NCBI GenBank assembly: GCA_050943115.1
Contig: JBMNON010000004.1
Coordinates: 2,447-66,446 of the forward strand
Length of the DNA stretch: 64,000 bases
Source of the DNA: Patescibacteria group bacterium
GTDB taxonomy: Bacteria > Patescibacteriota > Microgenomatia > UBA12405
Direction of reading: 5' to 3'
The notes below the pieces were generated by a model, which was not told the origin of the DNA, made no database searches, and saw only the letters and a list, made by a program, of their open reading frames with translations. The position numbers and the translations under genes were made by a program. Shown here in pieces: positions 3,823 through 60,399 of the stretch. Numbering within the stretch: the stretch's first letter is position 1; each line of letters starts with the position of its first letter.

Positions 3823-5145
3823 ATGATTACTAAAACTTTAAAAGCCTTTCTTATACCCCTCCCTTTTTTATTTTTGTATATATTATTATCAAATATTCCT
3901 TCCGCTGTTAACAGCGTCGAGGATTGCCTTTCTGGTGAGTTTAAGTTGGACAACTGGAAAGACTCTGATAAAAACGTAAACAAAAATTGGTCGGATACGC
4001 CCGGTTTCAACTGTTCTTATGGTATTCAGGCAGCCGACATCCAAATAAAAGCCGGAGATGGCACCTATTTTGAGGCAAGCTCCTGTTACGGCATAAGCTG
4101 GGATCAATCGTCTTGGTCTGCATGGGAAAAATGGCAGGGGGACGATAAAGGCACTGAGTGCAAGGATACCGTACAATGGTATTGTAAGTGCCCGCCCCAA
4201 CCGCCCACATCAACTCCTACAAACACACCCACCTCGACTTCTACTCCGACTCCAGATCCCACTTCCACCCCCACTCCGACACCTACCAACACCCCATTAC
4301 CAACATCAACACCGTCACCGCTACCGACTCCGACACCTACTCCTACAAACACACCCACCTCGACTTCTACTCCGACTCCAGATCCCACTTCCACCCCCAC
4401 TCCGACACCAAACAATACCCAAACACCAACTCAAACCCCTATTGCCACGCCAACTAAAACTGTCACACCTACCCCCACGCACACTCCAACCCCGACAAAT
4501 ACACCCGTCAGTAATCCCACCCCTACAGCCACCGACACTCCCTCAAGTAGCTCGGAGCCCACTTCTACTCCTCCAGCTGTTGGAGGCGACAACCCCATTG
4601 TTACTTCTATCACTAAAACTTCCACCCCTCAGGTTTTGGGAGCATCACAAAACTTTAATCCGATTATCGAATCAATCAAAAAATCCCTTGTCGGCCAGGT
4701 TCTGGGAACCTCTTTTTTAGCCAACACCTCTGCTCCCTTTAGCCCCCAGGAAAAAATGCCCTCCTCAAACCTCCCTACAGACGGTTCCATCCTTATTCCC
4801 AAGATTGGTCTTTCTCAGCCTTTATATCAGTCTGCCAGAATAGGACAGGAATTTCTTGTCGGTGACCATGAAGTTCTGTTGGCAGAAGTTGATAATACCA
4901 CTTTGATTTACGGTCACAATAGCCCGAAAATATTCGGAAACTTGTATAGGCTGAAATCCGGTGACGCAGTAATCGTAGATATGGGAGACTATTTTGAAAA
5001 TTATATTATTTCTTCCAAGCATTTTGTCCACCAATCCGATGCCGACTTCCTAAAAATTGCCGATCAGGACAATATCGTACTTATGACTTGCAGTTATTCT
5101 AAACCTGAATATCGGCACATATTTATTGCTACCAAAACCAGATGA
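3823..5145 (+). CDS. Sortase-domain transpeptidase with unusual architecture: N-terminal signal anchor, Cys-rich module, ~180-aa Pro/Thr linker, C-terminal sortase catalytic domain.
   Basis: C-terminal domain has the sortase catalytic triad context: LIYGHNS (His), IVLMTCSY (TLxTC Cys), [12 protein letters not shown] (Arg). Compare SrtA LTLITC...RKIFVATEV. The Cys-rich region (C...C...[13 protein letters not shown]) resembles the module in the protein at 16326..17369. Confidence 0.75.
4214..4409 (+). repeat. Two identical 70-nt direct repeat copies (4214-4283 and 4340-4409) inside the sortase PT-linker coding region.
   Basis: Exact 70-nt identity read from the sequence; each copy encodes [23 protein letters not shown]. 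The copies are 126 nt apart. This is a recent intragenic duplication and a slippage-prone site. Confidence 0.8.
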
Positions 5146-5681
5146 AAAAAATAATCAGATACATTATCCCGGTATTTTTACTTATAGTTTTACTTTTTCT
5201 AGTTGTCCGGTCCCAAGATAGTTCTAAAGATACTCCGGAAAGCAACAACTTGACGACAGAAAATCAATTAATTTTGCCTGAATCCTGGTTTTACTCAGAA
5301 GATAATCAAGGTGCGACTCTAAAGATTGAAAAGCTTTCGGACAATGATGTCAGACCGGGAATTATCTTATTAGAATCCGATCTGCCGCCTGAGATTACTC
5401 CAAAAACTTACGTTGATAATTTAATAAAAGGTGCCCGCTCCACCCTTCCCAGTCTAAAAATTATTTCCGATAAAGAATCTGTTGAAAACTATTATCTCCG
5501 AAGTTTTAATTCCAGCTACACTATTAATGGTCAAAAAATAAATATAATCCAAAGAATATACGTAATCGACTCGCAGGTTTATACCCTTACAGCTTCGTAT
5601 CTCCCCGTGGAAGCCAGTATAGAATCCGATGTCGAGCAGATTTTTAATTCCATTTTTCAGTCCGAAATCATTTCCAATTAA
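5142..5681 (+). CDS. Membrane-anchored hypothetical protein, translationally coupled to the sortase gene (ATGA overlap).
   Basis: N-terminal TM segment [15 protein letters not shown] followed by a ~150-aa extracytoplasmic domain. The 4-nt overlap with the sortase stop suggests co-expression. Confidence 0.45.
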
Positions 5682-11751: not shown

Positions 11752-11817
11752 GGCTCTTATTCTATCTCAACCTTCCCATATTTACAAGAATTTATATAAT
11801 AGGTCATAATTACACCT

Positions 11818-13431
11818 ATGAACATTAGGCAACGGCTTACCGTTTATACGACACGCCGGCAAAGCAGTATTCTTTCAGCTTCTATTGTTTTGGCTGTTAC
11901 CTTTGCCATATCGGCTGCCCTAGGTTATCTCCGGACCCGCTTTCTTTACGGCATGTTCTTTAAATGTTGCGCTTCTGAGTTGGATGCCTACAATGCTGCT
12001 TTCCGCTTACCGGATTTAATATTCAAGCTTTTAGTAACTGGCGCCTTATCAGCCTCATTCATTCCTGTATTTTCCGGCTATCTTCACAAAGATCCCAAGC
12101 AAGCCAACAAAATTGCCTCAACGGTAATAAACCTCCTATTTCTAGTTTTTATCGGTGCCGCCATAACACTTTTAATGTTTACCCGCCCCTTATCTGAACT
12201 CATTGCTACCGGTTTTACTTCAGAACAATTTGATTTAATGGTCAACCTTACCCGGATACTTTTGACCGCCCAAATCTTCTTCCTCATTAGCAATTTCATC
12301 ACGGCCATACTCCAAGTAAATCAGATTTTTCTCATTCCGGCCTTTTCTCCTATCGTCTACAACTTATTTATTATCCTTAGCATTTTCACGCTCGCCCCCC
12401 GCTTTGGTTTATATGGGGTTGCTTATGGTGCTGTTGTTGGTGCCTTTTTCCACCTGGCAATACAAATACCAATTGCTAGGCGAGTTGGATTTAATTATTC
12501 CTTGGTTGCCGATACAAAACTAAAAGGGGTCAGGGAAGTTGTTAGGTTAATGATCCCCCGCAGTTTGTCTTTGGGCTTAGGTGAAATTGAGAATACTGTT
12601 ACCTTATTCTTTTCCAGCACGCTTGCCGTTGGTTCCTTTTCCTTACTTAACTTAGCAATGCAACTTATATATCTCCCCTCCAGGATTTTTGGGACTACAG
12701 TAGGTCAAGCGTCATTACCGATTCTGTCGAAAAATATCGCCAGAAATGAGCTTAACACCTTTCGTCAAACCGTCAACAAAACTCTCCTTCAAAGTTTATT
12801 CATCTCACTTCCCATCGCCACGCTTTTGTTGATATTACGCCTGCCGGTAGTGAGAATTGCCTACGGATCAAGGCAATTTCCATGGGAAGCCACCGTACTT
12901 ACCGCCAAAACTCTGGCTTTCCTGACACCGGTTATAGTTTGCCAGGCTGCTATCCAAATCCTTGTTAGGTCCTTTTATGCCCTCCACAACACCAAAACTC
13001 CTCTACATATCTCGACCATTTCACTGCTTACAAACATTATCCTAAACTACACCTTTATAAAATTAACTGATCTTGGAATAATGGGGTTGGCTATCAGTTC
13101 GTCGGTAAGCAATATTATCCAGGTGTCCGGATTGATGTTTCTGTTTATCAAAAAAGTCGACGGCTTCAACTGGCTTTCAACCTTCAAATCGGCATTTAGA
13201 ATATTTATTGCTTCCTTAGCCGCGGGAGCGTCCACTTGGATGGTGTTCAAAGGTTTGGATCTTTTCTTGCTAAACACCAGCAGAACCATCAACGTTCTAT
13301 TGCTGCTCGGTTCCACCTCTGCCATAGGCGGTTCCATTTATCTGATTTTAGCTCACCTACTTAATATCGAAGAATTCGCCGAATATAAAAAGTATTTCCT
13401 GAAAACCAAGCGTTTTATTTCCGCCAAATAG
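11818..13431 (+). CDS. murJ: Lipid II flippase MurJ/MviN.
   Basis: About 14 TM segments; N-terminal FRLPDLIFKLLVTGALSASFIPVFS is the MurJ signature region; 537 aa. Confidence 0.85.
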   Translation: MNIRQRLTVYTTRRQSSILSASIVLAVTFAISAALGYLRTRFLYGMFFKCCASELDAYNAAFRLPDLIFKLLVTGALSASFIPVFSGYLHKDPKQANKIASTVINLLFLVFIGAAITLLMFTRPLSELIATGFTSEQFDLMVNLTRILLTAQIFFLISNFITAILQVNQIFLIPAFSPIVYNLFIILSIFTLAPRFGLYGVAYGAVVGAFFHLAIQIPIARRVGFNYSLVADTKLKGVREVVRLMIPRSLSLGLGEIENTVTLFFSSTLAVGSFSLLNLAMQLIYLPSRIFGTTVGQASLPILSKNIARNELNTFRQTVNKTLLQSLFISLPIATLLLILRLPVVRIAYGSRQFPWEATVLTAKTLAFLTPVIVCQAAIQILVRSFYALHNTKTPLHISTISLLTNIILNYTFIKLTDLGIMGLAISSSVSNIIQVSGLMFLFIKKVDGFNWLSTFKSAFRIFIASLAAGASTWMVFKGLDLFLLNTSRTINVLLLLGSTSAIGGSIYLILAHLLNIEEFAEYKKYFLKTKRFISAK

Positions 13432-13448
13432 TTGTATATACTGTTTAT

Positions 13449-14015
13449 ATGAAACCCAAAAAAGAGATTTCTCTTTTGCCGGATGAGATGGACCTCAACT
13501 CACCTTCTGCCCGTCTTTTACGCTGGATTACAACTGTCGGCCGTGTTGTCATAATTGCAACCGAACTGGTTGTTATCGGTGCTTTTCTCTCCCGGTTCTA
13601 TCTTGACAGAAAAAATGCCGATCTCTCTGAGGTAATAAGACAGCAAAGAGCTATATTGGATAGTACCAAAGAGTTTGAAGATGACTTTACTCAGCTACAA
13701 ACCAAGTTGTCCACGATAAAAAAGGTTTATGCCGCCACCCCAGCTTATGATGAAAAAATTAGCGATTTAGTTACTAGTACCCCCCTCGATATCAGATATG
13801 AAAGTATGTCTATCAAAAAGTCCGATACGAATACGATTTCTGCTGACATCGAACTGATAGCTTTCCAGGAAGAGTCGATTGTCAATTTTATAACCAATTT
13901 AATTCTTAGCCCTTCCATGGATTCTGTCAACATTCGGACCATCAAGAAAAATTCAAAAGAAAACTTTTATAGGGTTACAATAGCCTTGGTTTTCAAAAAG
14001 GATCAGCCAAAATGA
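13449..14015 (+). CDS. PilN-like bitopic membrane protein (candidate type IV pilus/competence assembly component).
   Basis: Short cytoplasmic N-terminus with ISLLPDE (compare the PilN INLLP motif), one TM, a predicted coiled coil and a ~100-aa periplasmic domain; 188 aa. No pilM is visible upstream, so the assignment is tentative. Confidence 0.4.
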   Translation: MKPKKEISLLPDEMDLNSPSARLLRWITTVGRVVIIATELVVIGAFLSRFYLDRKNADLSEVIRQQRAILDSTKEFEDDFTQLQTKLSTIKKVYAATPAYDEKISDLVTSTPLDIRYESMSIKKSDTNTISADIELIAFQEESIVNFITNLILSPSMDSVNIRTIKKNSKENFYRVTIALVFKKDQPK

Positions 14016-14650
14016 ATTTCACTGAAACCCTGAAAACCCAAAAAATTCACCGCTTTGTAAAAAAGCAAAGAGAAAATAAAAAATTTCTCAAGTCACTGGA
14101 GTTAAGCGGTACTTTTTTCCTTATTGCCTTTTTTGGTTTATTTGCAATAAAACCGGCAATCACAACAATTTCCGGCTTGGTCGGGGACATTAAGGCTAAG
14201 GAACAGCTCACAGTAAAATTAAGGGAGAGGATTAAAAATATAATACAAGCTCAGGAAAATTATGCCCTTATCCAGGAGAAGTACAGCGTAATCGAATCTA
14301 GCCTTCCCGAAGGTTATCATTTTTTTAACTCTTCTAGCCAATTCCGGGCCTCCTTCATTGAGCAAAATGTCGCTTCTGACAGGTTGGTATATGGCTTTTC
14401 TGACACCCAAAAGCAGTCAGTTAAGAATCTACAAGCCTACAATATAAAGACCGGTGGTCAGGCCGATTTTTCACAAATAGTCGGTTTTGTCGACAAGATA
14501 CTTGGTGTCAGGAGATTGATGGATATTGATCAAATTAACTTTTCAATTGAAAAGGATGCCTACGCTGGCAGCCAAAGTGAAGCTAGCGCATCAGGTGGTT
14601 TGAAATTTAATATCAATGCCGATGTTTTTTACTGGGAGGAAGAAAAATGA
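14012..14650 (+). CDS. PilO-like bitopic membrane protein.
   Basis: Basic cytoplasmic N-terminus, one TM (LSGTFFLIAFFGLFAI), coiled-coil segment, C-terminal periplasmic domain; 212 aa. Overlaps the upstream gene by 4 nt. Confidence 0.35.
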   Translation: MNFTETLKTQKIHRFVKKQRENKKFLKSLELSGTFFLIAFFGLFAIKPAITTISGLVGDIKAKEQLTVKLRERIKNIIQAQENYALIQEKYSVIESSLPEGYHFFNSSSQFRASFIEQNVASDRLVYGFSDTQKQSVKNLQAYNIKTGGQADFSQIVGFVDKILGVRRLMDIDQINFSIEKDAYAGSQSEASASGGLKFNINADVFYWEEEK

Positions 14651-14940
14651 ACAAAGAAAAAACTTCATCGTATTTGATATTCATTTCAATTTTTACTTTC
14701 CTCACCGTCTTCACCCTGCTTATTCAAAAAAGTTATGAAAATTTAATCAAACCCACTCAAAACCTTGGCACCAACGAAAATATTACTCCGATGAATCCGA
14801 ACCTGGACATGACTGTTCTGGATGAAATTGAAAAGAGGGAAGATCTGCGTGTCGAGGATATAGACATGGGATTGCTTCAGGAGCTTGTGCCAACTCCGGA
14901 TTCTACCGATACAGGTACTCAATCAGTTAGGCTTCAATAA
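14647..14940 (+). CDS. Small single-pass membrane protein with acidic C-terminal tail.
   Basis: N-terminal TM (YLIFISIFTFLTVFTLLI); coupled (4-nt overlap) to pilO-like and followed 2 nt later by the large surface protein. Confidence 0.4.
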   Translation: MNKEKTSSYLIFISIFTFLTVFTLLIQKSYENLIKPTQNLGTNENITPMNPNLDMTVLDEIEKREDLRVEDIDMGLLQELVPTPDSTDTGTQSVRLQ

Positions 14941-14942
14941 CC

Positions 14943-16292
14943 ATGCGACAAGAAAAAAGGATACCGACACTCTTAGGACTGATCCTTCTCGTTCTATTTA
15001 TATTTGGAGGCGTTAGCCTAACCAGAAAAACAACATCTCTCAATACAAAAGCTAGTAATCCCTGTAAACCAATCAACCCCCAAGTAACCAACATTACCAA
15101 CAACTCCGCCGATATCTCTTTTCTAACAGAGTCCACTTGCTCATCAGCAATTATCATTACCGACAGGACAATTACTAACTTTAGGGAAAACAGCCAGGTG
15201 CACTACTTTCAGATAACTAGTTTACAAACCTCTACTGACTATACCTTTTCTTTCTTAATAAACGGCAACCGGCAGGAAAGCAGTAATTACAAATTTACAA
15301 CTGCCGGACAGCCATCAGGCAACATGCCCACATCAAACTTGGCTTGGGGAAAAGTTTATACCCCGGATCATCAACCGGCAATTGACGCTATCGTTTATCT
15401 AAATATTCCGGGGGCTTCTCCTCTGTCTTCTCGGGTTACGTCAAACGGATATTGGAATATCTCATTGGCTACTAGTTTTGATATTAATCAGAACACCTGG
15501 TTCACTCCGCCGGAAAACATAGAGGAAGATATCGTCGTACTTTACCCCAACTCTCCTCCGACCCAAATCACCAGTAGCACATCAAGAAACAATCCGGTAC
15601 CTGATATCATAATCGGTCGCAACTCATTTTCTTCAGTTAGCGCCAGTGGCGAAGAACCACCCGGTGTTATAGATCTTCCCGATCCTGGAGCTGTCCAAAT
15701 ACCCCTTGATATTATCAACCCCAAAAATAACGAATCAATAAATACCCAAAAACCCGATTTTTTTGGTAGCGGACCGGCAAATACCGTAGTCGAAATTCAG
15801 GTTGAATCACCCCAAACATTTACCGGCCAAGTCCACATAAATGATGATGGATCATGGAATTGGTCTCCTCCTGAAAATTTGGAGCCGGGAGAACATACAA
15901 TTACTGTTACTGCTACTGACCCCGAAACTGGTTTGGTAGAAACAGTCAAAAGAAGATTCGTTGTTCTGGCGGCTGATAACGACAACCTTGCCTTCACCGC
16001 TTCACAATCAGCCAGTCAAGCTAGCCCTACTCCGACAACAATACCCACCCCAACAGCCAAAGTTAGTAGCGCGAGTCCGTCTCCAACTCAAATACCAACT
16101 GTAACACCAGCAACAATTCCCACCAAAAAACCGGATGCACCAACACCAATTCCATCTATTACTTCTTCTAGTTCCGGCACCCAATCCAGCTTACTCGAAA
16201 GCGGACAGACCACCCCTACTTTACTTACTTTCATTGTTTCTACATCCCTGATTGGTCTTGGTTTAAGGCTGTTAAGGAAAACAAGTATTTAA
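14943..16292 (+). CDS. Large cell-surface protein: signal peptide, FN3-like and Ig-like (Big) domains, Pro/Thr/Ser linker, C-terminal TM plus basic tail (LLRKTSI).
   Basis: N-terminal hydrophobic signal. The segment ...NITNNSADISFLTES...YTFSF is FN3-like beta-sandwich, and PGEHTITVTATDPETGL is Ig-like/Big. PTPTTIPTPTAKVS is a linker, and the terminal hydrophobic stretch plus RLLRKTSI resembles a sorting-signal layout without LPXTG. Confidence 0.6.
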   Translation: MRQEKRIPTLLGLILLVLFIFGGVSLTRKTTSLNTKASNPCKPINPQVTNITNNSADISFLTESTCSSAIIITDRTITNFRENSQVHYFQITSLQTSTDYTFSFLINGNRQESSNYKFTTAGQPSGNMPTSNLAWGKVYTPDHQPAIDAIVYLNIPGASPLSSRVTSNGYWNISLATSFDINQNTWFTPPENIEEDIVVLYPNSPPTQITSSTSRNNPVPDIIIGRNSFSSVSASGEEPPGVIDLPDPGAVQIPLDIINPKNNESINTQKPDFFGSGPANTVVEIQVESPQTFTGQVHINDDGSWNWSPPENLEPGEHTITVTATDPETGLVETVKRRFVVLAADNDNLAFTASQSASQASPTPTTIPTPTAKVSSASPSPTQIPTVTPATIPTKKPDAPTPIPSITSSSSGTQSSLLESGQTTPTLLTFIVSTSLIGLGLRLLRKTSI

Positions 16293-16325
16293 AACTCGAA
16301 AATTTTCCTCTAAACTAACAATATA

Positions 16326-17369
16326 ATGCTTGTTCGTAAATATCTTTATGCCATTTTTACTATAGTCTTTTTCTCGCTATCACTCGTCGGTACCCTTTAC
16401 TTGGTTCAAAGAAATCAGGATATTAGGGACAGGGCTGAGGGTTGTCCTGAATGTCAGGAATGGAACGGTAGTTCTTGTTACTGGGATTTTAGCGGAGGAG
16501 GCGATGACTATTACATCCGATGTTGTTGCGCCCACCCTGATATATGTTCTGAGAGCGACGATTGGATGCAAAATTATTGCCAATCAAGCCCGGACGAATG
16601 TACCGTCTATCACCAAGGATCTTGTTTTACTGTAGAAAATTGCCAAGGTGAACAGGTTCAAAGATTTCACAAAAACTATACTGGTACGTCCGATAATTAT
16701 GATCAGGGTTTCTGCGGAACAACTGAAAATCCCGAATCACGCATAACTGTTCCCGATAATAACCAACATACTTATTGTGCTAACGCCAATCCTTGCGAGT
16801 GCGCCCAAATCGATCACCACTTCGACGGTGCTGGTGTCGATGGACCTGGAGGTGTCTGTGAGTGTAAAGCTTGTCCTCCACCCACCAATCCTCCTACCCA
16901 AATTCCTACAACCCCACCCACCAATACACCTACTCTGACCCCCACTAAAACTCCCACCCCTACAGCCACTAAAACTCCGACTCCTACTGCCACCAAGACT
17001 CCCACCCCAACCCATACGCCCACTCCCACCAAAACTCCGACTCCTACTGCCAGCAACACCCCGCCTCCAGGATCTACTCCGACCTCAACTCCTATTCCTA
17101 CAAACACGCCCACTCCCACCAAAACTCCAACCCCTGTCCCCCCATCTGGCACGCCCGCTCCAAGCAATACTCCTGCTCCCAGCAATACCCCAATACCGAC
17201 CCTGGTTATTGCCCAAAATACACCCGTTCCTACCGACGCCCCTGCAATAGCTCAGGCTCCCAGCCCAACTACAGTCACCTTGCCGCAAGCTGGCGTAGAC
17301 CTTCCGGTAAAGATAATCGCCGTTGTCGGTACAATTATCACATTGTTCGGCTTTTTGATATTATTATAA
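16326..17369 (+). CDS. Cys-rich secreted protein with long Pro/Thr linker and C-terminal LPQAG motif followed by a hydrophobic anchor; candidate sortase substrate.
   Basis: About 24 Cys in the first 190 aa (CPECQEW, CCCAHPDIC, CECKACPPP). A 130-aa PT repeat region (TPTPTATKTPTPT). C-terminus TLPQAGVDLPVK-IIAVVGTIITLFGFLILL. The CECKACPPPTNPPT junction mirrors [13 protein letters not shown] in the sortase. Confidence 0.6.
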   Translation: MLVRKYLYAIFTIVFFSLSLVGTLYLVQRNQDIRDRAEGCPECQEWNGSSCYWDFSGGGDDYYIRCCCAHPDICSESDDWMQNYCQSSPDECTVYHQGSCFTVENCQGEQVQRFHKNYTGTSDNYDQGFCGTTENPESRITVPDNNQHTYCANANPCECAQIDHHFDGAGVDGPGGVCECKACPPPTNPPTQIPTTPPTNTPTLTPTKTPTPTATKTPTPTATKTPTPTHTPTPTKTPTPTASNTPPPGSTPTSTPIPTNTPTPTKTPTPVPPSGTPAPSNTPAPSNTPIPTLVIAQNTPVPTDAPAIAQAPSPTTVTLPQAGVDLPVKIIAVVGTIITLFGFLILL

Positions 17370-17370
17370 T

Positions 17371-18303
17371 TTGATGACTACATCTTTAAGGGTTAATCTT
17401 CTTTCTCTGATAGAAGCGCTACGTCCGGTTCAGTGGATTAAAAATTTAAATTTATTCGCCGCCGCTATCCTCAATGGTCAGTTAACAAATGCTGAAGTCT
17501 TTTTTAAAAGCCTGGGTGCTTTTATTGTCTTTAGTCTTTTATCATCTTCTTCCTATTTGATAAATGATCTTGTTGACATTAACAACGACAGGAACCACCC
17601 TGTTAAAAAAAACCGCCCATTGGCCAGGGGTGACGTCTCTGAATCACTTGCCATCTTTACTGCCTTCCTACTGCTTATCCTGGGCTTATTCCTGGCAATG
17701 TTTATCAACCCTGGTTTTCTGTTTATATCCCTTGTGTTTGTTTTTCTTCAATATACATATTCTCTGGTCCTAAAAAAGAAGGCTATCCTCGATATTATCG
17801 GTATTGCTTTTTTCTTTATCCTAAGGGCATATGCTGGTGAAATTGCTACCGGTTACCATTTACCCGTATGGATAATGTTGACGGTAATTTTTCTCTCCTT
17901 GTTTATCGCAAGCGGTAAAAGACGCAGCGAGCTTGTGAATACCGGTTCCAAAACCAGAGCCGCTCTAAAAGGTTATGGTACTTCTCTTCTTAACTTTTAC
18001 ACTACCATGTTCGGCGTTTGCACCCTTATCACATACGCCATGTTTACCTTTCTGGAAGAGCCTGTCAGATTTCAAGGACTAATTCATAATTTTTTGCTGG
18101 AAAATTTTCCGGCAGCGCTTGACCGCAAGTGGTATATGGTAACGCTTCTTCCGGTGATATTTGGTATTATGCGCTACGGCCAGATTATCTTTGAAATGCA
18201 GGAAGGGGAGAGGCCTGAACGGGTTGTTGCTACTGATATCCCGCTTCTGATGTCCATCCTCGCATGGGGTCTAATGATAATCACCATTATTTATGTTCTT
18301 TAA
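17371..18303 (+). CDS. UbiA-family prenyl-phosphate phosphoribosyltransferase, decaprenyl-phosphate 5-phosphoribosyltransferase (DPPR synthase)-like.
   Basis: LRPVQWIKNLNLF, first Asp-rich motif YLINDLVDINNDRNHPVKKNRPLARG (NDxxDxxxD) and second motif in a polytopic membrane protein; 310 aa. The pattern matches the Rv3806c-type subfamily rather than quinone UbiA/MenA. Confidence 0.7.
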   Translation: MMTTSLRVNLLSLIEALRPVQWIKNLNLFAAAILNGQLTNAEVFFKSLGAFIVFSLLSSSSYLINDLVDINNDRNHPVKKNRPLARGDVSESLAIFTAFLLLILGLFLAMFINPGFLFISLVFVFLQYTYSLVLKKKAILDIIGIAFFFILRAYAGEIATGYHLPVWIMLTVIFLSLFIASGKRRSELVNTGSKTRAALKGYGTSLLNFYTTMFGVCTLITYAMFTFLEEPVRFQGLIHNFLLENFPAALDRKWYMVTLLPVIFGIMRYGQIIFEMQEGERPERVVATDIPLLMSILAWGLMIITIIYVL

Positions 18304-19891
18304 GAGAAAAAATATCTTCGGGTATCTTTCTTGTGCATTGTTACTGCTGGCCTTATTAACTCGTTTCTATAAATTGGACTGGGGTGACGGCTACTTTTTT
18401 CATCCTGATGAAATGAATATGGCTGTAGCCATAACTAGGTTTTCCACCCACAACCTTGATCCTCACTTTTATGCCTATGGCCAGTTCCCTTTATATCTTA
18501 CATATTTTTCCATCAAAACCTTCAATTTTATATCTAATGCCTCTTTCACTTCTCCTGTTAGCTTAGAAAGTGCCGTCTTTGGACTTAGGATTTGGTCTGC
18601 CCTTTTCTCACTTGCTTCCCTACTTCTTCTCTATCGTCTCTCTCGTCTTCTTTTTCCCGATAAAGTTTCTCCCCGGATATTCGTCTTATTACTCATTTTT
18701 ACACCCGGACTTATACAACTTTCCCACTTTGGTACTACTGAATCGTTTCTGTTTTTTGTTTTTTGTTTCAACCTTCTCATTGCTGTAAAGATTTTTGAAA
18801 AGTTTAAGTTAACCAGTCTTGTCCTGGCTGCTTTTATTAGCGGTATTGCTGTTGGTACAAAAATCAGTGCGATAATTATGTTCGGTCCCGTTCTCTTGTC
18901 GTTATTATTGACAACGGTAAAGACAAAAAAAATCGCTTATTATATCCTCCGAAACCTAATTTTCTTTCTGGTGGTGCTTTTAACATTTAGCCTATCTTCT
19001 CCTTATAACCTTGTTAACTTTAATGATTATAAATCCGCTCTTAGTTACGAAACCGCCGTCGCTCTGGGTCACATGAAAGTCTTCTATACTAATCAATTTT
19101 TGGATACAAAACCATACTTGTTTCAGTTACAAAAAGTATTCCCCTACACTCAGGGAATATTTATTTTTTTGCTTTCGGCACCTGGTTTAGTTCTGCTTAT
19201 AAAGAAAATGAACCACAAATGGTTATTAATCCTGCTTCCTTCGTTTGTTTACTTTCTTTACAATGGTCAGCTTTATGTCAAATGGACCCGTTTTATGTCC
19301 CCTCTCTTTTTCCTCCCTCCCCTGCTTGCCACCTATTTTTTTAGCCATCTTCGTTCAAAAACCTTAATCGTTTCACTCATAGCTATCTCCATTATTCCCG
19401 GTGTCTTCTTTTGGACAAGCAGATTTGAAACCGATGTCCGCCTCAAGGCGTCTGATTGGTTTATCGATAACATCCCTGCAAATACCAAGATATTGTCCGA
19501 GTCAGGCAATGTAATTAATATCCCCCTTGCTTCCGTTCCCTATGATGTTAACAATTTCGACTTTTATGTTTTGGAAAATAATCCCCTGCAGCTTGAGTTA
19601 CTATCAAAAGAGCTTCGGCTATCTGAGTACATCATCGTTCCCTCAAGAAGGGTTTTTAAAAACCAGCAGGGAGATAGGTTCCCCACCAGCCGGAAGTACT
19701 ATGAGGCTTTGTTTTCAGGTGACTTGGGGTTTGTGGAAATTAAAAAGTTTGAGCGGAACAATTCCTTTTTACTTAACTCAGAAGATGCAGAAGAAACCTG
19801 GTCCGTGTTTGACAATCCTACTATTAGAGTATTTAAAAAGTTTAACCATTTATCCCTGGAAGAGTATAAAAAAATTCTTGGCGCCACATGA
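18293..19891 (+). CDS. GT-C fold membrane glycosyltransferase (GT39/PMT-ArnT-like), copy 1.
   Basis: About 11 TM helices; first extracytoplasmic loop carries the HPDE(MN) acidic motif typical of PMT/ArnT-type GT-C enzymes; large C-terminal soluble domain; 532 aa. Confidence 0.65.
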   Translation: MFFKRKNIFGYLSCALLLLALLTRFYKLDWGDGYFFHPDEMNMAVAITRFSTHNLDPHFYAYGQFPLYLTYFSIKTFNFISNASFTSPVSLESAVFGLRIWSALFSLASLLLLYRLSRLLFPDKVSPRIFVLLLIFTPGLIQLSHFGTTESFLFFVFCFNLLIAVKIFEKFKLTSLVLAAFISGIAVGTKISAIIMFGPVLLSLLLTTVKTKKIAYYILRNLIFFLVVLLTFSLSSPYNLVNFNDYKSALSYETAVALGHMKVFYTNQFLDTKPYLFQLQKVFPYTQGIFIFLLSAPGLVLLIKKMNHKWLLILLPSFVYFLYNGQLYVKWTRFMSPLFFLPPLLATYFFSHLRSKTLIVSLIAISIIPGVFFWTSRFETDVRLKASDWFIDNIPANTKILSESGNVINIPLASVPYDVNNFDFYVLENNPLQLELLSKELRLSEYIIVPSRRVFKNQQGDRFPTSRKYYEALFSGDLGFVEIKKFERNNSFLLNSEDAEETWSVFDNPTIRVFKKFNHLSLEEYKKILGAT

Positions 19892-21588
19892 TCAAAAAAG
19901 AAAAAATTTTATTATTGCTTATTATCATTCTGGCAGCAATATTAAGGTTTACCGGTCTTAATTGGGATCAGAATCAACATCTTCACCCCGATGAAAGATT
20001 TTTGACAATGGTTGCCGATGCCATCAAAATTCCCCAAAGTTTTTCAGATTACCTCGACCCTCAGTTATCCTCTATGAGTCCCTATAATAAAGGATTTGAC
20101 TTTTTTGTCTATGGCACCCTCCCTCTCAATTTAACTAAAATCTTGGCAGTCAACTTCGGCTTCGACGGCTATTCAAAAATATATTTACTTGGCCGTCTCT
20201 TATCTTCGTTGTTCGATCTCTCTACTTTGCTTTTAACGTATATTATTTGTAAGAACTTGTTTAGCAAAAAATCCGCCCTCTTTGCTGCTCTGGCTTATTC
20301 TCTGATGGTGCTGCCGATTCAGCTGTCACATTTTTTTACTGTTGATACTTTTCTTAACTTTTTCATGGTTTTAACATTCTATTTTCTTGTAAAAGCTGCC
20401 GACAAACCCCGTCTGTTATATTTCCTGGGATTGTCTTTTTCCTACGGACTTGCCCTATCCTCAAAAGTTTCTGCCCTGTACTTTCTACCCATAATTGGGA
20501 TATTCTTTTTATTTATTTTATTTAAAGGGAAATGGTCCGGCAGCACTCTTTTCTTGATGATGATCGCATTGCTTAGTACCGCAATTAGCTTTCGACTTGC
20601 TCAGCCCACAGCCTTTGCCCAGTCTTCTTTTTTAAACTGGCAGCCAAATGAACAATTTCTCGGTAATTTAAAAACTCTCAAATCCATGGGTAATATCGAC
20701 TCCTGGTTTCCGCCTGATGTTTATTGGATTTCTCGTCAATCAAAACTTTTTGCACTTGAGCATGTAACAATGTGGGCACTGGGAATACCTCTCGGTTTAC
20801 TCTCGCTAATTTCTCTTCCTTTTTCTACCTACCGCATCATTCGTACCACAAATCTCCATCCGTTTAAAAACTCCAAGACCTTCTCGATACTGTCAATAAT
20901 AATTTGGGTTGTTTTTCTCTTCGTTTATCAATCCTTTCAATTCACCAAAAACCTGCGTTATTTTTTAATTATTATGCCCTTTCTTTCAGTCCTTGTTGGG
21001 TATCTGCTTGCCTCTTCCGTAAAACATTTTCAAAAATTTATTCCATCCAAACTCTATTTGGGCATTATTATCATCCTTGTATCAATATGGCCTCTTTCAT
21101 TTATCTCTGTCTATCTTAGACCTCACAGCCGCATTCTGGCCTCATATTGGATTTACGAAAATATTTCCAAAGGATCTCAATTAACCTGTGAACATTGGGA
21201 TGATTGTTTGCCCCTGAATATCAGCTCCAGCCAAAATCCATCCGTTTATGAAATAACTCAGCTCAACCTTTATGATCCTGAAAGCGAAGAAAAATGGCAA
21301 AACATAAATTCCGTATTGGCTAATTCCGACTACATGGTAATTACCAGTAATCGCCTCTACGGTTCTATTCCCTTTGTCAGCAACCGCTATCCCCTAACTA
21401 CTGAATTTTATGAAAAACTTTTTGGTAACCAATTAAATTTCACAAAAGTAGCTGAATTCCACCCAAAACCTTGTTTTCTTGGAATAGAATCCCCTCTGAC
21501 GTGTATAAACGATGAATGGGCCGAGGAATCTTTCACCGTTTACGATCACCCCAAAGTTCATATATTCAAGAAAATTAGCCTTCAATAA
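19888..21588 (+). CDS. GT-C fold membrane glycosyltransferase (GT39/PMT-ArnT-like), copy 2 (paralog of the upstream gene).
   Basis: Same architecture and the same loop-1 motif (HLHPDERF). 566 aa; 4-nt overlap with copy 1. Confidence 0.65.
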   Translation: MIKKEKILLLLIIILAAILRFTGLNWDQNQHLHPDERFLTMVADAIKIPQSFSDYLDPQLSSMSPYNKGFDFFVYGTLPLNLTKILAVNFGFDGYSKIYLLGRLLSSLFDLSTLLLTYIICKNLFSKKSALFAALAYSLMVLPIQLSHFFTVDTFLNFFMVLTFYFLVKAADKPRLLYFLGLSFSYGLALSSKVSALYFLPIIGIFFLFILFKGKWSGSTLFLMMIALLSTAISFRLAQPTAFAQSSFLNWQPNEQFLGNLKTLKSMGNIDSWFPPDVYWISRQSKLFALEHVTMWALGIPLGLLSLISLPFSTYRIIRTTNLHPFKNSKTFSILSIIIWVVFLFVYQSFQFTKNLRYFLIIMPFLSVLVGYLLASSVKHFQKFIPSKLYLGIIIILVSIWPLSFISVYLRPHSRILASYWIYENISKGSQLTCEHWDDCLPLNISSSQNPSVYEITQLNLYDPESEEKWQNINSVLANSDYMVITSNRLYGSIPFVSNRYPLTTEFYEKLFGNQLNFTKVAEFHPKPCFLGIESPLTCINDEWAEESFTVYDHPKVHIFKKISLQ

Positions 21589-22708
21589 TTTCTCTAAAAC
21601 TGTTTACGGTTCTGTTCTCCGAGAAAACTTTTTTCATTCTTTTGGAATTATTTGGCCTTTTATTATTTACTTCATTAACTATTGCCCAAGCTAGATTATT
21701 TTTCTCCCTTGTATCAAACAAGGTACCGGCACCACTGATCAGGATTGGCACTCTAACCCCGGGCAAACTACTGGCAACAACCCTAGCTCCACCCAAAATT
21801 GCTTCAGCCTGAACCATTCCAAAAGCTTCGGTAGAATTTGTACTTGGCAATACCAGCAAGTCTATGTTTTTATAAAAATAAGACAACCCTTCATTTGTCA
21901 AAAATCCTAAGTGGCTTACTACTTTTCTGTGCTTATTCATCAACTTGTGAATCCGCTTGATATAATCTATTTCTCCGATTGCATTCTTTGGACCCACTAA
22001 ATAAACCCCCAGATTGTTTCCCAAAGCTTTTCTTATTGGCCTTATCACCTCAAGTAAGCTTTCTATGCCTTTCTCTGCCGACAACCTCCCCACAAAACCG
22101 ATTTTATAAGCTATATCCCTTGTTGCCTTATCTATCAAGTTTTTTTCTTTTTTCAAAACCATTTCTTTACTTAATCTGATTGGTGGATAAACTACTCTGA
22201 CCTTGTCAAGATAACGGGAGACTACCGGCGACAGGGAGGCGTAATCCATGCTTGAACAGACAATAATATCCGCAATGTTGCAACAAAGTTGGTTTATTAA
22301 TTGTAATACCCATTCAATAATCCTATTCACTAAACCACAGGGTAGTCTGACATCGCAGTGATAGATAACTATACTTTTTTTGTTCAATATTTTTGCAGCC
22401 AGCAATAAATAAAACGCTTCAGGTTGGGGGAGGTTGCTTATTACAGTATCGCTTTTACGAACCTCTTGCCATCCCTGCCAAAACCATTTCGGCATTATCA
22501 GTCCCTTACTAAATTTTTTCCAAACTGGAACCCTGACAACTCTAACTCCACCCTCTGATTCTTCAAGTGGCAACTTTTTGTCGTGTTGCGAGGTGATAAC
22601 AGAGATGCAATCACCTTTCTTCCTCAAGGCTACGGCCAGCCTAGACACGTAGACGCTCAACCCGGAAGTGTATGGCAAATAATAACTTAAAGAAAATAAT
22701 ATTCTCAT
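21575..22708 (-). CDS. GT4-family glycosyltransferase (GT-B fold).
   Basis: N-terminal SGLSVYVSRLA-type GT4 start; C-terminal EAFGMVQAEAILGGARVVAS (E-x7-E motif); 377 aa. Confidence 0.75.
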   Translation of the reverse strand: MRILFSLSYYLPYTSGLSVYVSRLAVALRKKGDCISVITSQHDKKLPLEESEGGVRVVRVPVWKKFSKGLIMPKWFWQGWQEVRKSDTVISNLPQPEAFYLLLAAKILNKKSIVIYHCDVRLPCGLVNRIIEWVLQLINQLCCNIADIIVCSSMDYASLSPVVSRYLDKVRVVYPPIRLSKEMVLKKEKNLIDKATRDIAYKIGFVGRLSAEKGIESLLEVIRPIRKALGNNLGVYLVGPKNAIGEIDYIKRIHKLMNKHRKVVSHLGFLTNEGLSYFYKNIDLLVLPSTNSTEAFGMVQAEAILGGARVVASSLPGVRVPILISGAGTLFDTREKNNLAWAIVNEVNNKRPNNSKRMKKVFSENRTVNSFREIIEG

Positions 22709-23250
22709 TAGGCTTCTAGTGATAACGCTGTACCGATACTCTTATCAAACACTTTACATGCTTGGTTATTTTGATGCAGTACCTTTTGTTGTGGCAGCTG
22801 TTTTTTGAGATATTCAACAATCAACTTGTCATCCTCGACAAATATATCCGGTTTTATCCTTTCCAGTACTTTTTTCTTGAATATATGTGGTTGTTCATTT
22901 TTCAAATTCAGATGAATTTCGCAAAATACCTTATCCAATTTTCTTTTTTTCAACCAAAGATGGGTCTCCCTCTCCAGAAAAGAGTATCGGCTGGATATGG
23001 CCACTACATTACACTTCTCTGTTCCGGCAGCCCTTTTAATCAAGTCCAAATTCGCCTTGATTGCTGGTCTAAAAAAATAGATGTGGGATATTTTTCTGAT
23101 AAGTTGTTCTATTCTTGTTCTTGGGAATCGATAGTGCAGCCTTTTTGCCTTGCCTTTAAACAAAAGTTCAATTAAGATTTTTGGTATCAATGGAGGCTTG
23201 TCGATAATAACTCCGTCCAGATCAACCGCCAGCACATACTTTCTCTTCAT
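22708..23250 (-). CDS. HAD-superfamily phosphatase-like protein.
   Basis: Motif I VDLDGVI (DxDxV), motif II VVAISSR, C-terminal K...FVEDD (motifs III/IV); 180 aa. Confidence 0.5.
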   Translation of the reverse strand: MKRKYVLAVDLDGVIIDKPPLIPKILIELLFKGKAKRLHYRFPRTRIEQLIRKISHIYFFRPAIKANLDLIKRAAGTEKCNVVAISSRYSFLERETHLWLKKRKLDKVFCEIHLNLKNEQPHIFKKKVLERIKPDIFVEDDKLIVEYLKKQLPQQKVLHQNNQACKVFDKSIGTALSLEA

Positions 23251-23297
23251 TTTCTTTGATTATAACAGTGCCGATTTTTCTTTGGATATAATAAGCC

Positions 23298-23873
23298 ATG
23301 AATCCATATACTAGCAGAGCCAAAGACTTTTTGTTTTGGCAACCACCACTGGACTACCTGGCCTTATTGTTGTCAAAAAAATTTGGCCGCCAACTTTTCG
23401 TCTTCCTAAATTTTTTTATCTGGCCCTACCTTTTTTACTTATCTGTAATTCTTACCATTACTGATCCAAATATATTCTGGCAAATCTTTATTGCCATGTT
23501 TATAAGTGTTTTTGTCGAATATTTGCTCAAATCTTTGCTCCCTTGGAAGCGGCCCATTACCAAAACCCAAAACTTTCTCCCTTTTGGTATTCATCACCAA
23601 TGGGCTTTAAAGGGCAGTTTTCCTTCGGGGCATACGGCAAAAACACTTATATTCTTTCTTTTTATACTCCAATATGGTGTCCACTCGCCTCTAATTTTTA
23701 TCTTAATAAATGTCCCCCTGGTGTTAGCCCGGATATTTTTGGGATTCCATTATCCGGTTGATATCTTTGGAGGTCTGCTCACCGGTTTTATCTCTTGGCT
23801 TTTTACCCACCAACTCATCTTTCCTTCAGAGTTTACTGATCCACTTCGTGATATATTTAAGCTAGTTTTTTAA
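23298..23873 (+). CDS. PAP2-family (type 2 phosphatidic acid phosphatase-like) membrane phosphatase.
   Basis: All three PAP2 motifs are present: KRP (LPWKRPITK), PSGH (FPSGHTA) and SRx5Hx3D (LARIFLGFHYPVDIFGG). 191 aa with 5-6 TM helices. Confidence 0.75.
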   Translation: MNPYTSRAKDFLFWQPPLDYLALLLSKKFGRQLFVFLNFFIWPYLFYLSVILTITDPNIFWQIFIAMFISVFVEYLLKSLLPWKRPITKTQNFLPFGIHHQWALKGSFPSGHTAKTLIFFLFILQYGVHSPLIFILINVPLVLARIFLGFHYPVDIFGGLLTGFISWLFTHQLIFPSEFTDPLRDIFKLVF

Positions 23874-23875
23874 AT

Positions 23876-27937: not shown

Positions 27938-28975
27938 ATGATCACCCGAATTTTATATAACGAGGAAAAAGATCAATACAATAAGTTAATAAATCATCCG
28001 GTTCAAACATGGGAGTGGGGTGATTTTCAAATATCCCAAGGCCACAGGGTTTATCGCCTTGGTGTTTTCAATAAAAGCAAAATGGTCTCCGCTTATTCAG
28101 TTAGCTTTCACCAACTGCCCAGAACTGAATATTCCGTAGGGACTATCCTGCGGGGTCCGGCAATCAACCAGGACATGATTACCAACATTACCAAAATTGC
28201 TACTGACGAAAATGCTGTTTTTGTAAAATTCGAGCCAGACAAAATTATCGCTACTTTTGACAAGTACAACACTCCCAAGCACACCAAAATAAATATGGAT
28301 TTTCCCCATCTTATCGTATCTCCCAAAGTTGCCTTCTATCCCTATTCATACCTCCTTGACCTGTCAAAATCCGAAGATGAGTTGCTCTCTCTAATGCACC
28401 CCAAAACTCGTTACAACATTCGTGTTGCCAATCGTTACGGTGTTACCATTGAAGAGAAGAGCGATGACGAAGGGTTTGAAATTTATCTCAAACTCCTTTT
28501 TGAAACCACCAAGCGCCAGGGCTTTTATCTGCACACCCAAGAATATCATCGGGATCTTTGGAACACCCTCAAAACTACATCAATACCAAAAATCCTGCTT
28601 GCTTCATACCAGGGCCGGGTTTTGGCCGCTTTTATGCTTTTTGTCCAGAAAGATAAGCTTTTTTATCCTTACGGAGCTTCAAATGACGAGCAGCGGCAAG
28701 TGATGGCCCCCACACTATTGATGTGGGAAGCTATCAGATTAGGAAGGAAAAACGGATGCAAAACCTTTGATATGTGGGGGAGCCTGGGTCCCGAAGCCAA
28801 AGAGTCGCAACAGGGTTACGGTTTTCACCGTTTCAAGCAAGGTTTCGGAGGACAGCTGGTTCAATTTGTTGGAACTTATGACTTGGTGATTAACCCAAAT
28901 GCATATCGGCTTTATAATCTTGTTGATAAATACCGTTGGAAATTTCTAAGGCTAAAAGCCAAATTTGTCAGGTAA
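27938..28975 (+). CDS. FemAB-family peptidoglycan interpeptide-bridge aminoacyltransferase.
   Basis: 345 aa. C-terminal half (YQGRVLAAFMLFVQKDKLFYPYGASNDE...APTLLMWEAIRLGRKNGCKTFDMWGS) fits the FemABX/MurM GNAT-like core. Confidence 0.65.
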   Translation: MITRILYNEEKDQYNKLINHPVQTWEWGDFQISQGHRVYRLGVFNKSKMVSAYSVSFHQLPRTEYSVGTILRGPAINQDMITNITKIATDENAVFVKFEPDKIIATFDKYNTPKHTKINMDFPHLIVSPKVAFYPYSYLLDLSKSEDELLSLMHPKTRYNIRVANRYGVTIEEKSDDEGFEIYLKLLFETTKRQGFYLHTQEYHRDLWNTLKTTSIPKILLASYQGRVLAAFMLFVQKDKLFYPYGASNDEQRQVMAPTLLMWEAIRLGRKNGCKTFDMWGSLGPEAKESQQGYGFHRFKQGFGGQLVQFVGTYDLVINPNAYRLYNLVDKYRWKFLRLKAKFVR

Positions 28976-60072: not shown

Positions 60073-60399
60073 GTGAGTTCTAACCGTCAAGAATGTAATA
60101 ACGATAGCACGAGTAGCTTTTTGTTTGGCCTGCTCCTCGGTGCCATAATCGGTGCGTTGATTGCAATTATCATCTACAAAAATAATAAATCAGAAGTCCT
60201 GTCTGATTTTCAGAAAAAAATTCAGGAGATAGTCGGTAAATTTACCAATCCGACAAGTTCTTCATCCCCAAAAGAAACCGCATCTTTCTTGCCAAAACCC
60301 CCGTCCCCAAAAACGCAAATTTCCACCCAAACCTCGCCGCCCTCGACTTCTTCAAAAAGAAAAACTACCCCAAAAATGTTCATTAAGCCCAAAAGATAG
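60073..60399 (+). CDS. YtxH-like small membrane protein with Ser/Pro/Lys-rich tail (GTG start).
   Basis: FLFGLLLGAIIGALIAIII glycine-zipper TM typical of the YtxH domain; 108 aa. Confidence 0.4.
   Translation: MSSNRQECNNDSTSSFLFGLLLGAIIGALIAIIIYKNNKSEVLSDFQKKIQEIVGKFTNPTSSSSPKETASFLPKPPSPKTQISTQTSPPSTSSKRKTTPKMFIKPKR

Follow-up and report, generated by a model that had tools for sequence, protein, structure and literature searches.

How a bacterium of the Candidate Phyla Radiation (CPR) holds large exported proteins at its surface is the question raised by two adjacent genes in a 64,000-nt stretch of contig JBMNON010000004.1 (positions 2,447-66,446 of the forward strand), hereafter the window, from an uncultivated, ultra-small Patescibacteria group bacterium of the Shapirobacteria type. 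Both open reading frames (ORFs) were confirmed, one of 449 amino acids (aa) at 14943-16292 (+) and one of 347 aa at 16326-17369 (+). A preliminary description of this DNA, made without database searches, had recognised in both products the layout of sortase or exosortase cargo and had named a sortase gene at 3823 as a plausible partner. Comparison with related genomes, almost all of them metagenome-assembled genomes (MAGs) of Candidatus Shapirobacteria and Woesebacteria (CPR/Microgenomates), makes it reasonably likely that both are Sec-exported envelope proteins whose C-termini are variants of the tripartite Gram-positive cell-wall sorting signal. Since the pentapeptides that precede their terminal hydrophobic segments are conserved and fixed in position among relatives, a sortase-type sorting signal is the best reading of these ends.

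The 449-aa protein belongs to a family characterised by the Big_13 domain, and is built from the following parts (window coordinates; structure from an AlphaFold2 (AF2) model, built on a 56-sequence alignment and scored by the predicted local distance difference test, pLDDT):

14943..16292, + strand: 449-aa core envelope protein of the Big_13 family (ORF, Pfam, homologues, AF2 mean pLDDT 77.5)
14961..15020, + strand: N-terminal hydrophobic segment, residues 7-26 (AF2 helix, residues 9-26)
15072..15965, + strand: ectodomain of three beta-sandwich domains (AF2 and fold search)
15072-15299, + strand: beta-sandwich domain 1, residues 44-119 (pLDDT >90)
15339-15578, + strand: beta-sandwich domain 2, residues 133-212 (pLDDT >90)
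15708-15965, + strand: beta-sandwich domain 3, the Big_13 domain, residues 256-341 (pLDDT >90)
15981..16190, + strand: stalk rich in P/T/S/A, residues 347-416 (pLDDT <50, composition)
16191..16205, + strand: LLESG pentapeptide, residues 417-421 (gapless alignment to IPVAG of relatives)
16221-16265, + strand: hydrophobic segment LLTFIVSTSLIGLGL, residues 427-441
16266-16289, + strand: basic tail RLLRKTSI, the end of the protein (sequence)

The behaviour of the pentapeptide across this family carries the argument. A search with the ectodomain matched 383 proteins; in the best 120 of them, with lengths of 410-450 aa and ~50% identity along the whole query, the motif [VIMLP]Px[TSAP]G sits 22-30 residues from the end in 116, followed by xxxPT, ~17 hydrophobic residues and usually K/R, while the stricter pattern [LIVM]P.[TAS]G occurs only 11 times in the remaining 46,532 aa. 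When motif flavour was scored in 183 unique full-length members, the C-terminal motif read [VIM]Px[TSA]G in 141 and L[YIL]x[ST]G in 14; the proline-free variants were LY[EQK][ST]G, LI[KE]SG and LL[EK][ST]G, and positions 1 and 2 of the pentapeptide proved strongly coupled (Fisher p ~1e-15, a value not corrected for phylogeny). The LLESG of the window protein, with 28 residues between its G and the C-terminus, aligns gap-free with the IPVAG of the closest relatives, P0002 and P0003, and fits the L[YIL]x[ST]G flavour, so it represents variation within the family and not a missing motif. The preliminary description, which had seen no LPXTG-like pentapeptide in this protein, was therefore mistaken on this point, since LLESG occupies the conserved motif position of the family; the transmembrane (TM) segment plus basic tail that it reported is there as described, and of the 58 locus orthologues with a scored tail motif, 51 have K/R within their last 8 residues.

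The second gene belongs to another group, defined by its location. In these genomes the space between the Big_13 gene and a downstream UbiA gene forms a slot that is empty (<60 bp) in 40 of 69 genomes and, when filled, usually holds 1-2 genes of 106-610 aa, mostly with the same leader and tail. The occupant of the window has these parts:

16326..17369, + strand: 347-aa accessory 'slot' surface protein (ORF; leader and tail common to slot genes)
16326..16436, + strand: conserved slot leader, a hydrophobic region ending ...GTLYLV and then NQDIRDRA (alignment)
16437..16877, + strand: 18-Cys globular module (one homologue, no family match)
16878..17279, + strand: proline/threonine (PT) linker of 134 aa (P 31%, T 34%)
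17280..17366, + strand: slot-type sorting tail, with LPQAG at 17280-17294, the spacer VDLPVK and then IIAVVGTIITLFGFLILL to the C-terminus

Both ends are kept by 27 unique slot proteins: the leader YLV[KR]xNQDxRx[RK]A after a hydrophobic region, and a tail with the consensus GPSPTRI-x-LPx[AS]G-[VFI][DEN]FP-...-GxIxTLLGFLILL-COOH, which in all 27 ends ...LILL, uncharged. The strict leader pattern, sought among 1,555 unique ORFs, occurs in 16 slot proteins, 2 Big_13 proteins and 2 truncated slot-like ORFs. Between the ends, the globular modules fall into 9 unrelated BLAST clusters and are often Cys-rich; that of the window is a singleton, whose sole homologue, P0121, is 45% identical to it and which has no Pfam or NCBIfam match, so that no family or fold can be assigned to it. 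Thus, the 347-aa protein is an accessory cassette protein that would display an interchangeable module on a PT stalk. Its LPQAG occupies residues 319-323, with 24 residues after the G, and the hydrophobic segment that follows (residues 330-347) runs to the end with no basic tail. We also considered whether the Cys-rich module is common to this protein and to the sortase described below, and rejected the idea for lack of similarity (BLASTP E 0.28).

Several loci show how this site varies. Two slot genes stand in tandem at L035 11290-13591, the slot tail at L081 5877-6866 reads LLESG and not LPxSG, and L056 and L058 carry minimal slot proteins of 106 aa that consist of leader, short linker and tail only. 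The DNA of the PT linker in the 347-aa gene carries 24- and 18-nt tandem repeats, and PT-coding DNA of the window, at 4200-4600 and 16800-17300, has a C-over-G skew of -0.31 and -0.26 (2-kb windows) and yields long spurious antisense ORFs, for example one on the minus strand at 16814-17185 that reads 'GVGV...'. In public annotation, the 342-aa slot gene at L001 11335-12363 has been replaced by a called gene of 135 aa on the minus strand, and P0122 and P0123 are tail fragments; PT-coding DNA thus misleads gene callers, and such proteins are often truncated or assigned to the wrong strand in public data.

Could motifs as loose as these have arisen by chance? The pattern [LVIM][PL]x[TSA]G has 9 matches in the 19,314 aa of window proteins, of which only LLESG and LPQAG lie 24-28 residues from a C-terminus and before a hydrophobic segment. 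Among 1,094 unique ORFs of at least 150 aa from 85 related loci and the window, LP.[AST]G falls 20-30 residues from the C-terminus in 27 of its 33 occurrences and [VIM]P.[AST]G in 53 of 65, in a zone that makes up 3.2% of all residues; because these occurrences are homologous, the counts reflect conservation and not independent events. The motifs are not scattered at random over internal positions, the pattern that the preliminary description had proposed as a check on its idea. Besides the Big_13 genes, 29 ORFs of the loci and the window bear such a tail, and every one of them is a slot gene. Curated models point the same way at family level: the LPXTG anchor model TIGR01167 is the sole curated C-terminal sorting-domain model to pass its cutoff on any tail, with scores among the relatives of 16.7 (a slot tail; cutoff 15.9), 14.6, 14.1 and 13.8, the three below the cutoff including one Big_13 tail. 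PF00746 reached 14.7 against a cutoff of 20, and other -CTERM models (PEP-, PGF-, GlyGly- and similar) matched none of 8 tails at E <=10.

A sorting signal calls for an enzyme, and the window encodes a candidate together with a gene for a possible acceptor:

3823..5145, + strand: divergent sortase, candidate processing enzyme (Pfam Sortase 48.6 bits, cutoff 26.6)
4717-4731, + strand: internal LANTS motif of the sortase, a [LFI]-[PAMVFY]-x-T-[AGS] element
5142-5681: gene that shares 4 nt with the end of the sortase gene, its stop included (179-aa product, TM segment at the N-terminus, weak match to DcrB)
27938..28975, + strand: FemAB-family peptidyltransferase (Pfam FemAB 130 bits)

The product of 3823-5145 is a sortase-superfamily enzyme of no curated class. 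It consists of a signal/TM segment, a Cys-rich module, a PT stalk of ~130 aa, the LANTS motif and a catalytic domain, in which His365 (YGHN), Cys423 (LMTCS) and Arg431 (YRHIFIA) align with the catalytic residues of solved class C and A sortases; the AF2 model of this domain has a pLDDT of 80-97, and all of its top Foldseek matches are sortases. None of the NCBIfam sortase class cutoffs was reached (sortase_fam 34.1 against 39.35, class C 30.5 against 160, class D 20.9 against 165). Relatives of the enzyme (P0128-P0247) share its order of parts: a signal/TM segment, variable modules (often Cys-rich, FN3 or thrombospondin (TSP1)-like), a PT stalk, a conserved QVLG...NYNPL...GQVLG segment, an internal [LFI]-[PAMVFY]-x-T-[AGS] pentapeptide, whose Thr is >=90% conserved, and the catalytic domain. 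Judged by sequence, this layout resembles that of a sortase substrate in which the sortase domain replaces the membrane tail, and the internal LANTS-type motif might serve as a pseudo-substrate lid or as a place of self-cleavage; the AF2 model has a pLDDT of ~50 in the LANTS segment, at which no docking in the active site is readable. The idea that position 2 of the internal motif tracks position 2 of the Big_13 tail was tried and dropped: three pairs agree (the window, L027 and L068) and L006, whose sortase end is identical to P0128, disagrees. The sortase and its 179-aa partner recur as a pair in three other genomes (partner gene at L006 124-660, L027 1161-1709 and L068 1063-1644), which suggests a conserved two-gene unit.

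FemAB-family enzymes build the peptidoglycan cross-bridge that serves as sortase nucleophile, and by analogy the FemAB gene of the window implies that this CPR bacterium cross-links its peptidoglycan through an interpeptide bridge. A sortase family has been reported as near ubiquitous in Microgenomates (PMC6744442), and class E sortases, which use LAXTG, are a precedent for a non-proline residue at position 2 (PMC5148588). Conserved pentapeptides at a fixed position, an intact sortase, a FemAB gene and, at family level, a borderline match to the LPXTG model all favour the earlier suggestion that the two proteins are plausible substrates of the sortase at 3823.

What kind of protein, then, would be sorted? 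The Big_13 domain (PF19077) of the 449-aa protein scores 41.4 bits at residues 262-327 (Pfam gathering threshold 27), and the same precomputed assignment is found on most family members. The C41/C66 pair of domain 1 is invariant in the family. Foldseek searches with the whole model returned generic FN3, BIg, S-layer and macroglobulin-type tandems only, with no functional lead and a TM-score of ~0.15, a low value explained by the flexibility of the domains relative to each other. The stalk contains 17% P, 18% T, 21% S and 11% A, and disorder in the AF2 model extends over residues 347-422, up to a C-terminal helix of 25 residues (423-447, pLDDT 68-89). At the other end, a basic n-region with the conserved K(E)KRIPT motif precedes the hydrophobic segment; E4, P8, I10 and G12 of the leader are >=90% conserved, and A37 is invariant. 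From these sequence features, the segment may be a long Gram-positive-type signal peptide cut after A37 (SKA|S) or else a retained anchor, in which case the 449-aa protein would become a membrane-to-wall tether.

Much of the architecture in the preliminary description holds. Both proteins do start with a secretion signal, a basic n-region followed by a hydrophobic segment of ~20 residues; the FN3/Ig-like ectodomain of the 449-aa protein is borne out by three domains with pLDDT >90, one of them Big_13; and both proteins end in hydrophobic segments (residues 427-441 and 330-347), as the tripartite layout demands. Some details need correction: the module said to contain 24 cysteines has 18, all at residues 40-183 of the 347-aa protein; the long TPTPT linkers are P/T-rich in both proteins (P 31% and T 34% in the 347-aa one), the linker of the 449-aa protein being mixed P/T/S/A; and LPQAG is present, its distance of 26 residues from the end being approximate, since 24 residues follow its G.

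Gene order around the 449-aa family was compared in 84 loci, from 80 species-level genomes. The gene order in the window is murJ (11818-13431), PilN, PilO, the 97-aa gene, the 449-aa gene, the 347-aa gene, UbiA, two PMT_2, GT4, PAP2 and DUF2298, and the closest neighbours of the two proteins are these:

13449..14015, + strand: PilN homologue, first gene of a coupled unit (4-nt overlap with the next gene)
14012..14650, + strand: PilO homologue (Pfam PilO in orthologues)
14647..14940, + strand: 97-aa bitopic protein of no known family (present in all 85 related loci)
17371..21588, + strand: UbiA and two PMT_2 GT-C glycosyltransferases (NCBIfam NF008978 204.4, cutoff 207; Pfam PMT_2)

The block murJ-pilN-pilO-small gene-Big_13-(slot)-UbiA-PMT-PMT is kept, in order and on a single strand, in 79 of the 84 loci, with the full order through UbiA and the two PMT_2 genes seen in 58, and the 97-aa gene, which overlaps pilO by 4 nt, is separated from the Big_13 gene by 2 nt. 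At family level the PilN/PilO assignment is solid on sequence grounds: Pfam PilN matches 32 of 34 orthologues (best E 1.2e-10), Pfam PilO matches 23 of 35, the PilO family profile finds the Myxococcus PilO chain 3jc8 (E 2.5e-5), and the PilN N-terminus KKE-ISLLP, a PilM-binding-type motif, is >90% conserved. The ORFs scanned in the 64-kb window include no gene for PilM, a pilus ATPase, a platform protein or a pilin, and PilN and PilO seem here to stand apart from any pilus cluster. Across 80 Shapirobacteria-type genomes the 449-aa family is present as a single copy, and the median identity of its ectodomain to orthologues is 47%, compared with 51% for PilN, 47% for PMT1 and 35% for PilO; it thus keeps pace with PilN and PMT1 in its evolution and is slower than PilO. 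As the product of a core gene, the 449-aa protein does not behave like a variable adhesin: a single-copy, syntenic, slowly evolving gene translationally coupled to PilN/PilO homologues does not fit a role in adhesion or host attachment.

Downstream, a syntenic envelope glycan cluster (window 17371-25963) comprises UbiA, the two PMT_2 genes, GT4, a PAP2 phosphatase and DUF2298. UbiA scores just under the cutoff of NF008978, a model for decaprenyl-phosphate phosphoribosyltransferase, and the cluster resembles, in sequence, a polyprenyl-phosphate pentose donor pathway; that the UbiA/GT-C/PAP2 genes glycosylate the P/T linkers, or build a wall polymer, is speculation. The best promoter-like sites lie upstream of murJ (11773-11810), and all terminator-like matches between 13431 and 21588 are inside coding regions, none being intergenic, which is weak evidence that fits one long operon. 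Further observations concern the records and the rest of the window. Many loci (records among L006-L085) have a clearly CPR-type gene content yet carry the title 'uncultured Gammaproteobacteria' or, in one case, 'Candidatus Methanoperedens'; mislabelling or misbinning of the MAG records is the probable cause. Scans of the whole window for tRNA, tmRNA and Rfam families gave nothing above threshold, and a 108-aa ORF at 60073-60399, with an N-terminal hydrophobic segment, a P/T/S-rich, lysine-rich tail and no family match, may be another small secreted or envelope protein, or no gene.

In the mechanism that we propose, both proteins would be exported by Sec and held in the membrane by the C-terminal hydrophobic segment; the divergent sortase of this lineage (3823-5145) would cleave within the pentapeptide and would then transfer the protein to lipid II or to the peptidoglycan cross-bridge. 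The 449-aa protein would probably be a wall-linked, three-domain stalk working with the PilN/PilO membrane platform, whereas the conserved leader and tail of the 347-aa protein would display its interchangeable module. The gene models, the domains, the conservation and position of the motifs, the synteny, the PilN/PilO homology, and the fold and triad of the sortase are directly established.

A number of points weigh against sortase-mediated anchoring as we propose it: (i) LLESG lacks the proline that is present in ~90% of known sorting signals. (ii) The slot tail has no positively charged end, a classical defining feature of these signals, and its membrane segment is unusually conserved (GxIxTLLGFLILL), which could hint at recognition by something other than a sortase. 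(iii) The window's own two tails match neither TIGR01167 nor PF00746. (iv) Only 4 of 86 sequences (85 loci and the window) have the sortase gene and the Big_13 gene no more than 10 kb apart. (v) Since these genomes are collinear over all of the 20 kb, synteny by itself says little about a functional tie to murJ or to the glycan genes, and the scanned window ORFs include neither pilM nor another pilus gene. (vi) Cleavage and peptidoglycan linkage are, for either family, predictions from sequence alone.

Which other explanations do these points favour? The one that survives best, although we regard it as unlikely, is that both C-termini are plain membrane anchors, stable helices that are never cleaved, with the 449-aa protein perhaps tethered at both ends and the conserved pentapeptide region serving instead as a hinge or partner contact. 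The 25-residue helix modelled at residues 423-447 of the 449-aa protein (pLDDT 68-89) would suit such an anchor, as would window tails that score below the curated LPXTG model, a pentapeptide (LLESG) with no proline and a slot tail with no basic retention signal, and a preprint on the Pam pilus proposes that C-terminal TM helices anchor Ig-like envelope proteins of CPR bacteria (10.64898/2026.03.03.709456). However, a membrane helix needs no pentapeptide fixed 22-30 residues from the end of 183 sequences that share ~47% identity, nor does a helix alone explain the invariant G and the T/S/A at position 4; the same layout recurs in the unrelated slot family, and the motif matches sortase recognition, with a sortase gene nearby.

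Less probable still is the proposal that both proteins are adhesins that attach an episymbiont to its host. Beads-on-a-string beta-sandwich ectodomains on stalks do resemble the stalks of SiiE and Bap, and the slot module is hypervariable between species and encoded by an accessory gene, as expected under diversifying pressure. Against this, the 449-aa gene belongs to the PilN/PilO operon, occurs as a single copy in a syntenic position and matches PilN and PMT1 in conservation, no adhesin-specific domain was found and the fold matches are generic. The host-attachment role offered in the preliminary description is therefore not supported for the 449-aa core protein, which is single-copy and coupled to PilN/PilO, and a variable surface or adhesin role is possible for the 347-aa accessory protein only; the episymbiotic lifestyle assumed in the same description is unsupported, as nothing in the data shows it. 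Finally, we consider it improbable that another sorting enzyme (exosortase-, archaeosortase- or rhombosortase-like) reads the motif and membrane segment, especially of the slot tail: that tail, conserved through its membrane segment and uncharged at its end, is closer to -CTERM domains than to the variable classical LPXTG stretch, position 2 is Tyr, Ile or Leu in one Big_13 subclade, and the systematic difference between Big_13 and slot tails could mean two enzymes, but curated -CTERM models match none of the tails, in contrast to the LPXTG anchor model, the scanned window ORFs of ~190 aa or larger include no member of the exosortase, archaeosortase or rhomboid families, and the sortase's own [LFI]-x-x-T-[AGS] element, with its variable position 2, would be compatible with relaxed specificity there.

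Returning to sortase-type sorting, the locus shares features with four known systems and departs from each of them: (i) As in the LPXTG system of class A and E sortases, there is an export signal, an ectodomain, a P/T-rich linker, a pentapeptide 24-28 residues from the end and a hydrophobic segment, with a sortase (His/Cys/Arg) and FemAB in the same genome; the basic tail is matched by the 449-aa family only. LPXAG-type motifs are known in staphylococcal proteins. Unlike the LPXTG system, position 1 in the Big_13 family is mostly V/I/M and not L, a subclade including the window protein has Y/I/L at position 2, and the slot tails are uncharged, with a conserved membrane segment; unlike the classic sortases, the enzyme of the window falls outside the curated classes and has, ahead of its catalytic domain, an N-terminal module rich in Cys, ~130 aa of PT stalk and an LxxT[AGS] element. 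(ii) The diderm PilMNOPQ module ties an inner-membrane platform to the wall and the outer membrane. With respect to this PilM-N-O-(P-Q) arrangement, the upstream genes are true PilN/PilO homologues, with the ISLLP-type motif, and the 97-aa and Big_13 genes occupy the gene-order positions of pilP and pilQ in diderm pilMNOPQ operons. The Big_13 protein, however, has no similarity to PilP or secretins in sequence (Pfam, NCBIfam) or fold (Foldseek), so the analogy is at most positional or functional, and the unit adjoins murJ, unlike pilus clusters; CPR bacteria have been reported to lack PilQ (PMC6744442). (iii) Like the PT-linker glycoproteins of Actinobacteria, which undergo Pmt-type O-glycosylation, the window has P/T-linker genes directly upstream of two PMT_2 genes and of genes for a polyprenyl-phosphate sugar donor (UbiA, PAP2). 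In contrast to the actinobacterial Pmt system, UbiA points to a pentose (ribose/arabinose) and not to mannose, the cluster could equally build a wall polymer, and linker glycosylation is speculative, as the adjacency may just reflect collinearity. (iv) The Pam pili of CPR bacteria likewise involve Ig-like/FnIII envelope proteins, with PamR, PamC and PamD having a C-terminal TM proposed to tether them (10.64898/2026.03.03.709456). Unlike the locus studied here, the pam operon adjoins ATP synthase genes, and donor-strand exchange but no sortase motif has been described for it (10.64898/2026.03.03.709456); a relation between the two, compared by description only, was set aside on the different gene context and the lack of a sortase.

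These likenesses can be joined in one model, which we regard as doubtful in its entirety: the Big_13 protein would be the monoderm CPR counterpart of PilP/PilQ, its stalk linked covalently by sortase to peptidoglycan and joining PilN/PilO in the membrane to the wall where lipid II is exported (murJ) and glycans are assembled; a lineage-specific sortase would be relaxed at position 2 (Pro, Tyr, Ile, Leu); and the slot would be a cassette site with a second, charge-less tail type. If this were true, cargo-like sortases with LxxT[AGS] in cis could anchor themselves or be autoinhibited.

The general theme of this work is known. New here, as predicted from sequence comparison, are LPXTG-type sorting in CPR bacteria with unusual motif flavours, a charge-less tail type, the PilN/PilO context and an atypical sortase; a full-text literature search for 'Microgenomates' together with 'LPXTG' returned no paper. 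The CPR/Patescibacteria make up a large share of bacterial diversity, and their cell envelopes are almost uncharacterised. The locus described here provides a conserved family of putative substrates, marked by [VIM]Px[TSA]G or L[YIL]x[ST]G, together with the LPx[AS]G...GFLILL tail of the swappable surface modules and an enzyme that may act on them; with these, sortase specificity and wall anchoring in CPR bacteria become directly testable. The operon link to PilN and PilO, outside any cluster of pilus genes, may point to an assembly that spans the envelope and is peculiar to these monoderm-like cells.

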